This document shows, in pieces, positions 1 through 48,604 of a stretch of 64,000 nucleotides of DNA (within the stretch, counting starts at the first letter, position 1; each line of letters begins with the position of its first letter). The translations under genes and the position numbers were made by a program. The notes under the pieces were generated by a model. That model had not been told where the DNA came from. It searched no databases and saw only the letters and a list, made by a program, of their open reading frames with translations. The stretch comes from a phage. The DNA lies in the sequence record PX421306.1; one strand, given 5' to 3'.

Positions 1-82
1 AGAATTTAGATGTAGTCAGTTCAGCAGTCATTTTAGAAGTGGAAGCTTTAATCAAACGGGATTTTAAATCTGCAATAGACAT
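1..82 (-). CDS. uvsX: RecA-like recombinase UvsX, N-terminal fragment (gene runs off the window start)
   Basis: Minus-strand ATG at 82; translation MSIADLKSRLIKASTSKMTAELTTSKF matches the recalled T4 UvsX N-terminus. Confidence 0.75.
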   Translation of the reverse strand, partial: MSIADLKSRLIKASTSKMTAELTTSKF

Positions 83-159
83 TCATTTTTTCCATAGGCA
101 TCATCATATTTTCCTCACTGGTTAAAGATAGAGTAATTATAACACAATAAATTTAGGCA

Positions 160-1008
160 TTAATCAACTGCTATTGGATGAATAGCATTAAACTTATGAA
201 ACGCTTCTGATTTTTCTTTGCGCGAAACACACATGCGAAGAACCTTTAATGGCTCGTCTTCTTCACCCAACGATTTTCGTTTTTCAATATTAGAAGTTTT
301 CCAACGAGCTTGCTCTGGAAACTCTTTATTGATTTGCTCAAGAGCTCTATTATGTTTTGAATTACTACGAATTGAACTACATCCGCCTGGAGCTTGTGCT
401 TTTCCAGACACAACCAGATATTTGAACAAAGCCAAATGCGGATAACCTTGGTTAATTAAATTGAGAAATGCATACATATCTTCACATAAATCAATTTTTC
501 CATACCCAATTTGTTCTGTAGTAAGTTTTCCGAGGTCATACCATGTATTCGTGAATCCATATGAATTTTCACGATAATTACCCCAAGATGAAGTAATTTT
601 AAAAATAGGTAGACGAGCATGACCGTGATAATACCCGCAATCCATGGCATCTTCCACGTATTGAATCAATTCATAGAACTGTTCACGAGTTAACTGATTA
701 ATTTTATCTACGCAGCGACGATCATCTTTCTTTCGCATTGAACTCATACGAATAGTAGTATCATCATCAATCATCCAAATTCGTTGACCTGCATACATAT
801 CAGTAATTGCTTTACGAGTTCCAGCAATTCCATTAACATCATCAGGAATAGTTATAATTTTAGCTCTAGACCCGTAAGCGTCATAATAAGCTTTTTCTTC
901 GTGTTCACGTACTACAATATGAGGTTCATAATCAGTCGGAAACATATCAAGGGCAGAAACTGTCCCTACGCGTTGATAGCTTGGAATTACGAATTGAATC
1001 ATTTCCAC
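160..1008 (-). CDS. putative GT-A-fold glycosyltransferase at the beta-glucosyltransferase locus (DNA hmC sugar modification candidate)
   Basis: 282-aa ORF between uvsX and gene 42; N-terminal FVIPSYQR and IWMIDDD (DxD) motifs typical of GT-A enzymes; does not resemble T4 beta-gt. Confidence 0.55.
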   Translation of the reverse strand: MEMIQFVIPSYQRVGTVSALDMFPTDYEPHIVVREHEEKAYYDAYGSRAKIITIPDDVNGIAGTRKAITDMYAGQRIWMIDDDTTIRMSSMRKKDDRRCVDKINQLTREQFYELIQYVEDAMDCGYYHGHARLPIFKITSSWGNYRENSYGFTNTWYDLGKLTTEQIGYGKIDLCEDMYAFLNLINQGYPHLALFKYLVVSGKAQAPGGCSSIRSNSKHNRALEQINKEFPEQARWKTSNIEKRKSLGEEDEPLKVLRMCVSRKEKSEAFHKFNAIHPIAVD

Positions 1009-1739
1009 TCACCGTTATAATCTTTTTTCGCAATATGAGTTTCGCCAGTTTTCCACCAATGGTCAACCAAATAAAAATGACGGGAATACACATGAAGGCT
1101 TCCGACATTCCATATAATGGAACCTGCTTTATACTGACGAGTTGAATCACCTGCATTCAAATCAGATACTAATTTATCTAGTACGTATTTTTGCCATGCA
1201 TAATCATTACGGAATCCGAAGACCACGTCATTTGAACGCATGTTAACCACTGCATTAATTTTCTTATCACGAATCAGATACTGTACTGTATTCGTACACA
1301 TGAAATCTGACATGCCATCTTTATTGTAGTCAAACTGCATGGATGGACGAGTATAAATCATGATACCACGTCGAGAATCAGGATTTTGACCAAGTTCAGC
1401 TAAACACATATCATATTGGGCATAGTTATCTTCTGACCAGATGGCCCAACCATAATTCGAGTTAATTTCGCCTTTAGAAGATGCTACCTGCTGCCAAATC
1501 TTTGGTGTTTCACCTGGAATATCTTTAACAAACAGACTTTGAGACTTATACCATTCAAGTTCACGCTGAATGTATTCATCATTAAGAGCGCCAAAAATAA
1601 AAGGTTCATCTGCTACAAATGATGCACCAATAATTTCAATAGTTTTAACCCCGGTTTTATCAATTACGAAATCTTTTTCCTTTAATGCAAGACCCAAATC
1701 AAGACGGATTTCTTCAACTGTCATATAATCGTTAATCAT
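999..1739 (-). CDS. 42: dCMP hydroxymethylase gp42
   Basis: 246 aa, same length and near-identical to recalled T4 gp42; thymidylate-synthase-like fold. Confidence 0.92.
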   Translation of the reverse strand: MINDYMTVEEIRLDLGLALKEKDFVIDKTGVKTIEIIGASFVADEPFIFGALNDEYIQRELEWYKSQSLFVKDIPGETPKIWQQVASSKGEINSNYGWAIWSEDNYAQYDMCLAELGQNPDSRRGIMIYTRPSMQFDYNKDGMSDFMCTNTVQYLIRDKKINAVVNMRSNDVVFGFRNDYAWQKYVLDKLVSDLNAGDSTRQYKAGSIIWNVGSLHVYSRHFYLVDHWWKTGETHIAKKDYNGEWK

Positions 1740-1892
1740 TTAAACCTCAATTGATGCATTCATATTTAATTTGTAACAGTAATAAACTCCAACCTATAAT
1801 AAGTGGCGGAATCATAAGAGGAACTGTTACGCTATAGTATATACTTATTATAATCATCAAGATTAAAAGCAATACTGCTAAAATTTTGCTTT

Positions 1893-2144
1893 TCATTCCT
1901 TCTCTCTGATGATAATTACTTGATTTTGCTGTACAGATTTTTTAGTTTCACCTGCAATTGACCAAATAAATGTAATAAACCAACCAATGATTGACCAGTT
2001 AAACAGTAAAGATGTGAAAAAGATTCCTACTGTCGATTTTGACCCACGCATCAAGGCGATGAACCACGGAAGCATGTATATAATAATAGCCAACACGCCT
2101 GAAACTAAAACCATAAAAATTGAACCTGCTACTAAAGTTTCCAT
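1893..2144 (-). CDS. imm: superinfection immunity membrane protein Imm
   Basis: 83 aa, two hydrophobic helices, position between 42 and 43 as in T4. Confidence 0.8.
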   Translation of the reverse strand: METLVAGSIFMVLVSGVLAIIIYMLPWFIALMRGSKSTVGIFFTSLLFNWSIIGWFITFIWSIAGETKKSVQQNQVIIIREKE

Positions 2145-2151
2145 ATTTTCC

Positions 2152-2532
2152 TCACTTAGTCAAATTTTTTACACATGAATTATAAGAATTTACTACATAC
2201 TCCATCGGAGCATTTTTACCAGTACGCCATTGGTAATTATTAGCCCAATTTGCCCAAAGTTCAGCACAGTAGTTTTCAATTTTTTCTTCACGCGTAATCA
2301 CATCTGAATTACGATATGCTTGTGCAGATTCATCTGGACGAATAGCTTCGTCAAAATTCGCCTGCATTTGTTCTACTGTCTGTTTTGGAGCCTCTTTATA
2401 ACACTTGACGTTAGGATTATAAAATTTGCTTGAACAGTTTACAATTTTTCCTACATCAGACTGATTTACTACTGGTCCTTGAGCTACACATCCAGTAAGA
2501 CCCAATGCAATAACCAAAATAGCGATTTTCAT
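2152..2532 (-). CDS. hypothetical lipoprotein
   Basis: 126 aa; N-terminal signal with lipobox LTGC; several Cys; between imm and gene 43. Confidence 0.55.
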   Translation of the reverse strand: MKIAILVIALGLTGCVAQGPVVNQSDVGKIVNCSSKFYNPNVKCYKEAPKQTVEQMQANFDEAIRPDESAQAYRNSDVITREEKIENYCAELWANWANNYQWRTGKNAPMEYVVNSYNSCVKNLTK

Positions 2533-2542
2533 AATAATTTCC

Positions 2543-2779
2543 TCAAATACAAGTAGTAATTACTCCAGTAGTGCTTACACAGGTATTACCTAATTGAACA
2601 CCCAGCGTTCCATTAGTATTCATATGAAGATTATCATCAATTTTTGTTGATACTTTACCATTCATGTGAATAATAGTATTAGATTCAATCACATTCTGAG
2701 TGTCATTTTCAATATCAATAAATGGAACAGTTGCTAATGCAACTAAACACACTGCTAAACAACCATAAACAATTTTCAT
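2543..2779 (-). CDS. hypothetical small secreted protein
   Basis: Start trimmed to MKIVYG (signal-peptide-like N-terminus) with GGAG RBS; the track ORF extension is translated promoter/leader sequence. Confidence 0.5.
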   Translation of the reverse strand: MKIVYGCLAVCLVALATVPFIDIENDTQNVIESNTIIHMNGKVSTKIDDNLHMNTNGTLGVQLGNTCVSTTGVITTCI

Positions 2780-2804
2780 TTTATTCTCCAAATCCGTATC
2801 AGTT

Positions 2805-2868
2805 GATAGTTGTATAGTATCATGGAAGAACGGGAATGTAAACAGTTTTGTGAAAAAAATTTTTAATG
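2805..2868 (-). promoter_or_regulatory. T4-type early promoter with conserved leader cassette
   Basis: Minus strand: A/T-rich UP region, GTTTAC (2837-2842), 18 nt, TGaTACTAT (-10 at 2814-2819); leader nearly identical to the copy at 29258-29318. Confidence 0.6.
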
Positions 2869-2925
2869 AATTTACAGGACCTAGAATCATCTATTTTTCC
2901 TAAGTATAGATTTATATTACTTGTA

Positions 2926-12612: not shown

Positions 12613-13815
12613 TTATTTTGTAATAATGTCAAACTGTTCTTTAAAGCAGAAGCTTGAATCTTGATGCTGATACAAAAATTCATAAGCTTTTTCACGTTCA
12701 CGGTCATAAAGAGCTCGGTCAGATGACAGTTCTTTAATACGTTCAAATGTTGATTCCATGTCATTTTCATCAAACCAAACGATACCGCTATCATGAGAAA
12801 TTAACGGAGTATTATCAACACGGAATTTTAAATTTTCGCCAGTAGATTTCCAAAATACTGGAATTGTTCCACATGCACCAAGCTCGAGATGAGTGTATTC
12901 TAAAGAACGCTGTAGATATTTTTTATCTAATTTACTCAGCTGATAACCAAATCCGGATTTACTCATGCGTTCAAGCATTTCGCTATTTACATAACGGTCG
13001 AGAATTTGCGTTGGCAAATTAGGAGCAATTTTAATTTGGTCTACTTGATGAAGACGATAATACTCGTATGGAATTCCTTTTTCTTTAATAGGAATGAATG
13101 CTGGAGAACGTTCCAGACCTTCCATAACAGTACTTAGTCCTGCGGGTTTAAGATGTTTTTCGTGAAAATCAAACATCTGATAAAAACCTTTCCATGTAGT
13201 AGTACGACCAATCCAACGGTTGATATTCATGTTAATTTCAGAAACATCTTTCCAGTAAGTTGATCGAACCTTCGCAATATCCATAGGAGGCTGAAAGTTA
13301 TATACGGTCGGTGCTTCTTCAATATCATCAAACAGAGAAACAGTTTCCGGATACCATTCTTTCATTAAAACTTTATTAAAATCACCATTATCAGAATGGC
13401 TAAAAATAACATCAGCTTGACGAACAGTTTCTTCTAATCCCAAATTTCGGCGCAAAGAAAGAGAAGAATGGTCATGTTGATAAACTACAACACGAACCGA
13501 AGGTTTAATGTTATCAATAATTTTTTTATAGTTATTAATTGTGTCTTCTTCAACTGAAGTAGCAGGAACTGAATTGATAATTAGAATATCACAATCATTT
13601 ACCAGTTTAAGTGTTTTATCGTATTCTTTTGCCAATAAAACCGGAATTGAAAATGATTTATAATCATGCGCGCAATTACGGGTAAATGATTTATCTTTAG
13701 CATAAACCAAAGTTACTTCATGACCATTTTTAATAAACCAATCACGCTGCTCAAGAGAAAATTTAGTTACGCCACAACCTTCAAGACCTCGAGCCATAAA
13801 AATGCATACTTTCAT
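12613..13815 (-). CDS. agt: DNA alpha-glucosyltransferase
   Basis: 400 aa, near-identical to recalled T4 a-gt (MRICIFMARGLEGCGVTKFS...). Confidence 0.92.
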   Translation of the reverse strand: MKVCIFMARGLEGCGVTKFSLEQRDWFIKNGHEVTLVYAKDKSFTRNCAHDYKSFSIPVLLAKEYDKTLKLVNDCDILIINSVPATSVEEDTINNYKKIIDNIKPSVRVVVYQHDHSSLSLRRNLGLEETVRQADVIFSHSDNGDFNKVLMKEWYPETVSLFDDIEEAPTVYNFQPPMDIAKVRSTYWKDVSEINMNINRWIGRTTTWKGFYQMFDFHEKHLKPAGLSTVMEGLERSPAFIPIKEKGIPYEYYRLHQVDQIKIAPNLPTQILDRYVNSEMLERMSKSGFGYQLSKLDKKYLQRSLEYTHLELGACGTIPVFWKSTGENLKFRVDNTPLISHDSGIVWFDENDMESTFERIKELSSDRALYDREREKAYEFLYQHQDSSFCFKEQFDIITK

Positions 13816-23823: not shown

Positions 23824-24825
23824 TTACTTAATTAACTGTAAAGCTTGTTCAAGACGATCCAGGCGATTAACAGATTCTTCCCAAATCCTTTTAGCCTGCT
23901 CATATTCTTTCTGCGCTTTATTAGAAATTTCTAGAACTTCTTTATAAGCCTTTTCTAGTGCAATAACTTCTGGACGAATTTCTACAGGTTCAGACGAATC
24001 ATCAAGATTATCCATTAGTTCCTCAAGTGTAATTTCTTCTTTAGGAGTATTCACAATTTCATCACATTTTTGTTGGTAAATTTCTTTATCAGTCGGTGAG
24101 TACGCACATTTCACTTCACGAAGACTAACTACAATTTTATATCCTTCCCAACCGCATATATTCTTAAAAGGATACGTATGAATATTTTCTACTGTTTCCA
24201 TACAAAGTAATGCGGTTTCTAATTGACGAGTTATAGTGCTAGCAATTGAGAAAAATTTATTAATGTTCTTTTGGTTAGTTTCTGGTGTAAAAAATCCATA
24301 ATTCACAAAAATAGATACTTTATTTTTATCAAGTTCATATTCTTTTATGATAATCATATCAGAAGCCAAAGGATGAATTTGACGATAATCGCCATAACAT
24401 AATTTAGAAGCTGATTTTAGAATCTGTCCTTTGAAAAGTCTGAAATTACTAATCCAACGACGAGTAAAAATATTCTCAGGGTCTTCTTTATTATTAAGAT
24501 GATAAGAATTAACATCACCGAACCAATTATATCCTACTACATCTTTGGTTCGTTTAATTTCTTTCCCAAAATTACCAAGAATATCCCGATTAACCAAATA
24601 TGAAAGAAGACGAGACTCTTTAAAGGTTTTCTTGATAAGATCTTTATCTACACGGCTAGAAATTTTACGAATTTCATGAATAAATTTAGTAGAAGAAACA
24701 ATACCTGCATCAACACTATTGAGCCATTGATTGATAATAGAAAGAACGCTATTTTGGCCAAACATCGGTATAGCTTTATCATCAATAACGCTATTGAATG
24801 ATTTGATATATTCGTTACGAGTCAT
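23824..24825 (-). CDS. hypothetical protein with C-terminal coiled-coil tail
   Basis: Start trimmed to MTRNEYIK; C-terminal heptad segment; early promoter immediately upstream. Confidence 0.55.
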   Translation of the reverse strand: MTRNEYIKSFNSVIDDKAIPMFGQNSVLSIINQWLNSVDAGIVSSTKFIHEIRKISSRVDKDLIKKTFKESRLLSYLVNRDILGNFGKEIKRTKDVVGYNWFGDVNSYHLNNKEDPENIFTRRWISNFRLFKGQILKSASKLCYGDYRQIHPLASDMIIIKEYELDKNKVSIFVNYGFFTPETNQKNINKFFSIASTITRQLETALLCMETVENIHTYPFKNICGWEGYKIVVSLREVKCAYSPTDKEIYQQKCDEIVNTPKEEITLEELMDNLDDSSEPVEIRPEVIALEKAYKEVLEISNKAQKEYEQAKRIWEESVNRLDRLEQALQLIK

Positions 24826-47772: not shown

Positions 47773-47848
47773 TGGTCGAGGCAGTAGGGATCGAACCTAC
47801 GACCTAGGACTTAGAAGGTCCTTGCTCTTCCTTCTGAGCTATGCCTCG
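47773..47848 (-). tRNA. tRNA-Arg (anticodon UCU)
   Basis: 76 nt cloverleaf folded by hand; anticodon loop CUUCUAA; GGUUCGAUCC T-arm; encoded CCA. Confidence 0.85.
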
Positions 47849-47852
47849 GATT

Positions 47853-47927
47853 TGGCGGACGTGATAGGATTCGAACCTATAACCAATCGCTTAACAGGCG
47901 ATCGCTCTGCCATTGAGCTACACATCC
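47853..47927 (-). tRNA. tRNA-Asn (anticodon GUU)
   Basis: 75 nt; anticodon stem ATCGC/GCGAT, loop CUGUUAA; TTCGAAT T-loop; encoded CCA. Confidence 0.8.
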
Positions 47928-47931
47928 AAAT

Positions 47932-48018
47932 TGGTGGGGAGTGATGGAGTCGAACCACCCGAGTCGCAATGACAATGGATTTACAGTCCACACCGCTACC
48001 TCTACGGGATAACTCCCC
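47932..48018 (-). tRNA. tRNA-Tyr (anticodon GUA)
   Basis: 87 nt with long variable arm; anticodon loop CUGUAAA; encoded CCA. Confidence 0.75.
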
Positions 48019-48031
48019 TTAATTCTTAATT

Positions 48032-48106
48032 TGGTGGCCCTGGGTGGAATTGAACCACCATCTGGCGATTATGAGTCGCTTGCTTGAACCTTCCAGCTAC
48101 AGGGCC
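48032..48106 (-). tRNA. tRNA with CAU anticodon (Met, or Ile if lysidine-modified)
   Basis: 75 nt; perfect 7-bp acceptor stem; anticodon loop CUCAUAA; encoded CCA. Confidence 0.75.
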
Positions 48107-48107
48107 T

Positions 48108-48183
48108 TGGTGCTGATTGACGGAATCGAACCGCCGACCTTCTCATTACAAGTGAGTTGCTCTACCTACTAAGCTAAATCAGC
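48108..48183 (-). tRNA. tRNA-Thr (anticodon UGU)
   Basis: 76 nt; anticodon loop CUUGUAA; GGCGG-TTCGATT-CCGTC T-arm; encoded CCA. Confidence 0.85.
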
Positions 48184-48188
48184 AAAAC

Positions 48189-48278
48189 TGGCGGAGGCGA
48201 TAGGATTTGAACCTATGAGTCGCCGGAACGACTGCCGGTTTTCAAGACCGGTGCATTAAACCACTCTGCCACGCCTCC
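48189..48278 (-). tRNA. tRNA-Ser (anticodon UGA)
   Basis: 90 nt with long variable arm; anticodon loop CUUGAAA; encoded CCA. Confidence 0.8.
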
Positions 48279-48280
48279 AG

Positions 48281-48354
48281 TCTCCATACAAGGATTTGAA
48301 CCTTGGACCTCCTGATCCCAAATCAGGCGCTCTACCAAACTGAGCTACACGGAG
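48281..48354 (-). tRNA. tRNA-Pro (anticodon UGG), CCA not encoded
   Basis: Anticodon loop UUUGGGA; only 2 nt from tRNA-Ser (dimeric precursor as in T4). Confidence 0.8.
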
Positions 48355-48364
48355 TAAATTAAAT

Positions 48365-48438
<74 letters not shown>

Positions 48439-48443
48439 AAATT

Positions 48444-48530
48444 TGGTGCGAGAAGTGGGACTCGAACCCACAAGGAAATCATTCCGCAGCATTTTAAGTG
48501 CTGTGCCTTTACCAATTTGACCATTCTCGC
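48444..48530 (-). tRNA. tRNA-Leu (anticodon UAA)
   Basis: 87 nt with long variable arm; anticodon loop CUUAAAA; encoded CCA. Confidence 0.8.
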
Positions 48531-48531
48531 G

Positions 48532-48604
48532 CTGGGAATAAAGGACTCGAACCTTTGCATCCTGGAATCAAAATCCAGTGCCTTACCAACTTGGCTAATT
48601 CCCA
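48532..48604 (-). tRNA. tRNA-Gln (anticodon UUG), CCA not encoded
   Basis: Anticodon loop UUUUGAU; 1 nt from tRNA-Leu (Gln-Leu dimeric precursor as in T4). Confidence 0.8.

Follow-up and report, generated by a model that had tools for sequence, protein, structure and literature searches.

The 64,000-nucleotide stretch of phage DNA analysed here (record PX421306.1, called the window throughout) carries an open reading frame between uvsX and gene 42, in the slot that holds beta-gt in T4. Which enzyme occupies this slot, and which sugars would it place on the hmC of the phage DNA? With a probability of roughly 95%, the frame encodes the β-glucosyl-HMC-α-glucosyltransferase of the T2/T6 type (gene ba-gt), which adds a second glucose to give gentiobiosyl-hmC. 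This assignment is based on the orthology, family, fold, motifs and synteny observed here together with the co-occurrence of a-gt and gene 42. A preliminary description made from the letters of the window had placed the frame between uvsX and gene 42 and had noted a T4-like alpha-gt and a dCMP hydroxymethylase in the same DNA, and these partners and neighbours are all found. The features are as follows.

1 to 82, minus strand: 5' end of uvsX, downstream of ba-gt and cut by the window edge (translation MSIADLKSRLIKASTSKMTAELTTSKF; synteny with T2, T6 and SA21RB)
160 to 1002, minus strand: ba-gt (= TAGT), 280-residue coding sequence assigned as β-glucosyl-HMC-α-glucosyltransferase from the open reading frame, T2/T6 identity, PF20691, PHROG 842 and the GT-A model
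760 to 780, minus strand: IWMIDDD, residues 75-81, holding the DxD motif D79-D80-D81 (sequence; invariant residues)
970 to 993, minus strand: FVIPSYQR, residues 4-11, N-terminal GT2-type first strand and loop (sequence; residues invariant in homologs)
999 to 1739, minus strand: gene 42, dCMP hydroxymethylase, upstream of ba-gt (Pfam Thymidylat_synt, E 4e-16; annotated so in orthologous loci)
12613 to 13815, minus strand: a-gt, α-glucosyltransferase of 400 residues (PF11440, 782.7 bits, E 5e-236)

On the minus strand, positions 160 to 1008 form an open frame without interruption, which comprises 282 amino acids when counted from a GTG at 1008, as in the preliminary description. While the frame is real, its start moves by two codons: the ATG at 1002 was chosen and the GTG dropped because this ATG shares an ATGA with the stop codon (TGA) of gene 42, is preceded by the Shine-Dalgarno-like GGTGAGTGG and is equivalent to the position at which ba-gt begins in the annotations of T2 and phage SA21RB. 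The resulting gene has 843 nucleotides including its TAA stop codon (160-162) and a product of 280 amino acids. Scanning window positions 1 to 2200 for sigma-70 promoters and terminators returned sites no commoner than in shuffled sequence.

The order gene 42 - ba-gt - uvsX, with uvsX beginning MSIADLKSRLIKASTSK... from nucleotide 82 downward, is identical in the window, T2, T6 and SA21RB; T4 carries beta-gt and segA between gene 42 and uvsX. Gene 42 of the window is 94.5% identical in nucleotides to the T4 gene 42 region. Searches with T4 beta-gt gave nothing significant, either against the whole window (tblastn, best E = 8) or against the ba-gt protein (blastp, best E = 3.3 over 8 residues). 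Over its first 25 kb, the window shows 96-98% identity to numerous T2/T6-like coliphages and Shigella phages, including SH-1, SA21RB, ime09 and HY01, and it belongs to a Tequatrovirus.

Product names in this family are unreliable. The records of RB55 (KM607002) and RB59 (KM607003) label a T4-type beta-gt 'beta-glucosyl-HMC-alpha-glucosyl-transferase', an apparent misannotation, as these loci are 99.9% identical to T4 over the end of beta-gt, segA and uvsX, while in many records the true ba-gt is called 'hypothetical protein' or 'glucosyl transferase'. Record names were therefore never used alone as evidence of identity, and the protein was compared directly with the T2/T6 reference phages, a comparison that the preliminary description had proposed. 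Over all 280 residues, end to end, its identity amounts to 98% with two T2 records and to 97-98% with two T6 records. At the DNA level, 479 phage records contain the gene at 90-99% identity, near-full-length in 475, and 'beta-glucosyl-HMC-alpha-glucosyl-transferase' is a frequent label among them. The protein matches PF20691 (Pfam 'TET-associated glycosyltransferase', TAGT) with 39.7 bits, above the gathering cutoff of 27.5 bits, over profile positions 2-205 of 205, and PHROG 842 'beta-glucosyl-HMC-alpha-glucosyltransferase' with E 2e-89. Among 5.8 billion proteins searched, the homologs form a compact family at 99, 77, 63-65, 48-51 and 30% identity, and nearly all of them carry PF20691. A second Pfam match, 'RNA_binding' at residues 218-273, was below threshold (E 0.15) and was discarded as noise. 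Among the sugar patterns that the preliminary description had considered, a second sugar added to α-glucosyl-hmC as in T2/T6-type phages is the one supported by the near-identity to the T2/T6 enzymes, by PF20691 and by synteny.

A sequence search of the PDB with the ba-gt protein yielded chance matches only (E about 1) and no detectable solved relative; the fold was therefore assessed with a model. The AlphaFold2 model built on the family alignment (mean pLDDT 72.6, pTM 0.75) has an alternating β/α N-terminal half; three of its loops (residues 140-149, 191-211 and 241-251) are of low confidence. In the family alignment, which spans homologs down to 30% identity, the invariant positions include I6-P7-S8-Y9, R11, M77 and D79-D80-D81, and likewise D121, D175, G206-G207 and R212. 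The motifs FVIPSYQR and IWMIDDD, on which the preliminary description had based its GT-A/DxD assignment, are read directly in the sequence, and this assignment is independently confirmed, with GT-A as the predicted fold and the acidic DxD conserved in the family; neither the model nor the invariant motifs point to a non-GT fold. Analogy with GT2 enzymes suggests that the uridine of the nucleotide-sugar is bound by the IPSYQR loop, and the metal and the diphosphate by D79-D80-D81. The catalytic base may plausibly be D175 (in CEDMY), which is likewise invariant.

The chemistry proposed for ba-gt, i.e. use of UDP-glucose and β-1,6 transfer onto α-glucosyl-hmC, is one that we infer from published biochemistry of T2 and T6 and from LC-MS data on related phages. 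In the T-even pathway, which leads from gp42 over a-gt to ba-gt and is summarised in PMC6024577 and PMC13216743, gp42 would make hm-dCMP, from which the modified base derives and which the phage polymerase would put into DNA. The a-gt product would then place glucose, donated by host UDP-glucose, on hmC in α linkage, providing the α-glucosyl-hmC that serves as acceptor for ba-gt, and ba-gt would add the glucose of a second UDP-glucose to the α-glucosyl residue in β-1,6 linkage, giving gentiobiosyl-hmC. This last step is probably metal-dependent through D79-D80-D81. It is also probably inverting, as in GT2 enzymes, because a β product would arise from UDP-α-glucose.

The likeness to T2/T6 ba-gt thus extends over sequence, the gene 42/uvsX slot, the partner genes a-gt and gene 42, the motifs and the predicted GT-A fold. 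Six substitutions distinguish the window protein (R11, T14, K92, I101, K226, P251) from that of T2 (H11, A14, R92, V101, R226, S251), and in the window protein none of the six alters a family-invariant residue. Cellular GT-A enzymes of the GT2 family (TarP 6h1j, WrtF 9omh, BcsA, K4CP, SpsA) share only 7-16% sequence identity with ba-gt and act on polysaccharide, lipid or teichoic acid, whereas the acceptor of ba-gt would be a sugar on DNA. T4 beta-gt resembles ba-gt in its slot beside gene 42, in the use of UDP-glucose and in forming a β linkage on modified phage DNA. However, T4 beta-gt (GT63, PDB 1JG7) has a GT-B fold (PMC13216743) and bare hmC as its acceptor, while ba-gt is predicted to be GT-A, has no sequence similarity to it and would act on α-glucosyl-hmC. 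The arabinosyltransferases of RB69 and DLP3 are likewise DNA-sugar transferases of T4-like phages, and some of them stack a second sugar on the first. They are set apart from ba-gt by their published description, which has them transferring arabinose to 5-hydroxycytosine and being GT-B-like (PMC13326640); the GT-B-like fold of the RB69 type, resembling GT4 enzymes such as sucrose-phosphate synthase and PimA, is not found in ba-gt.

T4 itself retains a trace of ba-gt. Positions 24238-24262 of NC_000866 are a 25-nucleotide remnant of its 3' end, identical at 24 of 25 positions to window 158-182, and correspond to the last seven codons and the stop; the remnant lies between beta-gt and segA, three bases ahead of the start codon of segA. 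Phages with the arrangement ba-gt - segA - uvsX (PD112, CE1, ESh36, LH2, 235Ecol030PP) show 97-99.7% identity to T4 that sets in precisely at this vestige, and phages with a T4-type beta-gt lacking segA match T4 only on its other side. The vestige and these match boundaries therefore place the junction of the T4 beta-gt/ba-gt exchange inside the 3' end of the former ba-gt gene.

Comparison with the reference phages also revealed irregularities in the T2 and T6 copies. Both T2 records (LC348380, AP018813) have His11 in place of the Arg11 of the IPSYQR motif (codon at window nucleotides 970-972), a residue that is invariant in the window, T6 and all homologs down to 30% identity. In T2, 5% of hmC is gentiobiosylated and in T6 72%, although the enzymes are almost identical (PMC6024577). 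That R11H might explain this low value in T2 is a tentative and rather doubtful idea, a speculation from the alignment that is complicated by lesions of the gene in both T6 records; if it were true, the phage of the window would be of the high-gentiobiosyl, T6-like type. In T6 MH550421 an in-frame TAG is present at codon 10 of ba-gt (there ggt) and the coding sequence is annotated from Met20, so that the first β-strand motif is lost, while in T6 AP018814 a 3-nucleotide deletion costs one Asp of the invariant DDD. The differing lesions suggest decay in laboratory stocks or dispensability on laboratory hosts, and are odd given the 72% gentiobiosyl-hmC reported for T6.

As the frame fills the locus held by beta-gt in T4, and as an inverting GT2-like enzyme is expected to give a β-linked product, one could imagine a non-homologous replacement of beta-gt that glucosylates bare hmC directly and leads to T4-like α/β monoglucosylation. 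The 97-98% identity to the T2/T6 enzymes argues against this, as does the composition of T2/T6 DNA, in which about 25% of hmC is unglucosylated and β linkage occurs only within gentiobiose (PMC6024577); moreover, LC-MS shows no β-glucosyl-hmC in Tequatroviruses with a-gt and TAGT (PMC13390438). We regard such a replacement as extremely improbable. It appears no less far-fetched that ba-gt transfers some non-glucose sugar, such as the arabinose of RB69-type phages, or uses a different acceptor. PF20691 is a broad family, and distant TAGT homologs in phages without a-gt and beta-gt probably have other specificities (PMC13216743), but the window protein is nearly identical (98%) to a glucose-transferring T2/T6 enzyme, and the RB69/DLP3 arabinosyltransferases are GT-B-like (resembling sucrose-phosphate synthase, PimA and BshA; PMC13326640) while ba-gt is predicted to be GT-A.

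A different concern is that ba-gt is intact and yet contributes little, either with di-glucosylation as a minor modification, as in T2 with about 5%, or with the gene dispensable and drifting. T2 reaches only this level of gentiobiosyl-hmC with an almost identical gene (PMC6024577), and the lesions in the laboratory T6 records suggest dispensability on laboratory hosts. On the other hand, ba-gt of the window is full length and its product has all family-invariant residues, including R11, which is His in both T2 records, the gene is kept at at least 90% identity in 475 near-full-length phage records, and natural isolates with the same gene set have roughly 40% gentiobiosyl-hmC (from the ratio of 1:2:2, PMC13390438). 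A minor role is thus unlikely, and we favour a functional T2/T6-type ba-gt that would make gentiobiosyl-hmC, a reading that no direct evidence contradicts.

Two further parts of the window were noted. Ten tRNA genes are present on the minus strand at 47773-48604 (Gln, Leu, Gly, Pro, Ser, Thr, Met(CAT), Tyr, Asn, Arg); T4 presumably has eight, so that Tyr and Asn would be extra here. A variable slot between imm.1 and gene 43 holds an open reading frame of 115 amino acids (2543-2890, minus strand), of which only 2772-2862 matches T4, at 89%. SA21RB has the same 348-nucleotide gene in this slot, T2 a hypothetical gene of 252 nucleotides, and T6 and T4 have nothing annotated.

Everything in the assignment of ba-gt has been published before: the window carries an ordinary copy of a long-known enzyme, and its identification, which will not surprise specialists, has little consequence beyond correct annotation. 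The preliminary description saw something unusual in the locus because T4 was taken as the reference. However, the pairing of α-GT with β-GT seen in T4 is rare, occurring in 6 of 753 genomes (PMC13216743); the arrangement of a-gt with ba-gt is the majority state in Tequatroviruses, and T4 is the exception. In natural Tequatroviruses that have alpha-gt and TAGT but lack beta-gt, LC-MS detects hmdC, α-glucosyl-hmdC and α-gentiobiosyl-hmdC, in three of them in a ratio of about 1:2:2, and no β-glucosyl-hmdC (PMC13390438). The virion DNA of the window's phage is predicted to be a T2/T6-like mix of hmC, α-glucosyl-hmC and gentiobiosyl-hmC, in proportions that may vary as widely as between T2 and T6, and would be free of β-monoglucosyl-hmC and hence not of the T4 type.
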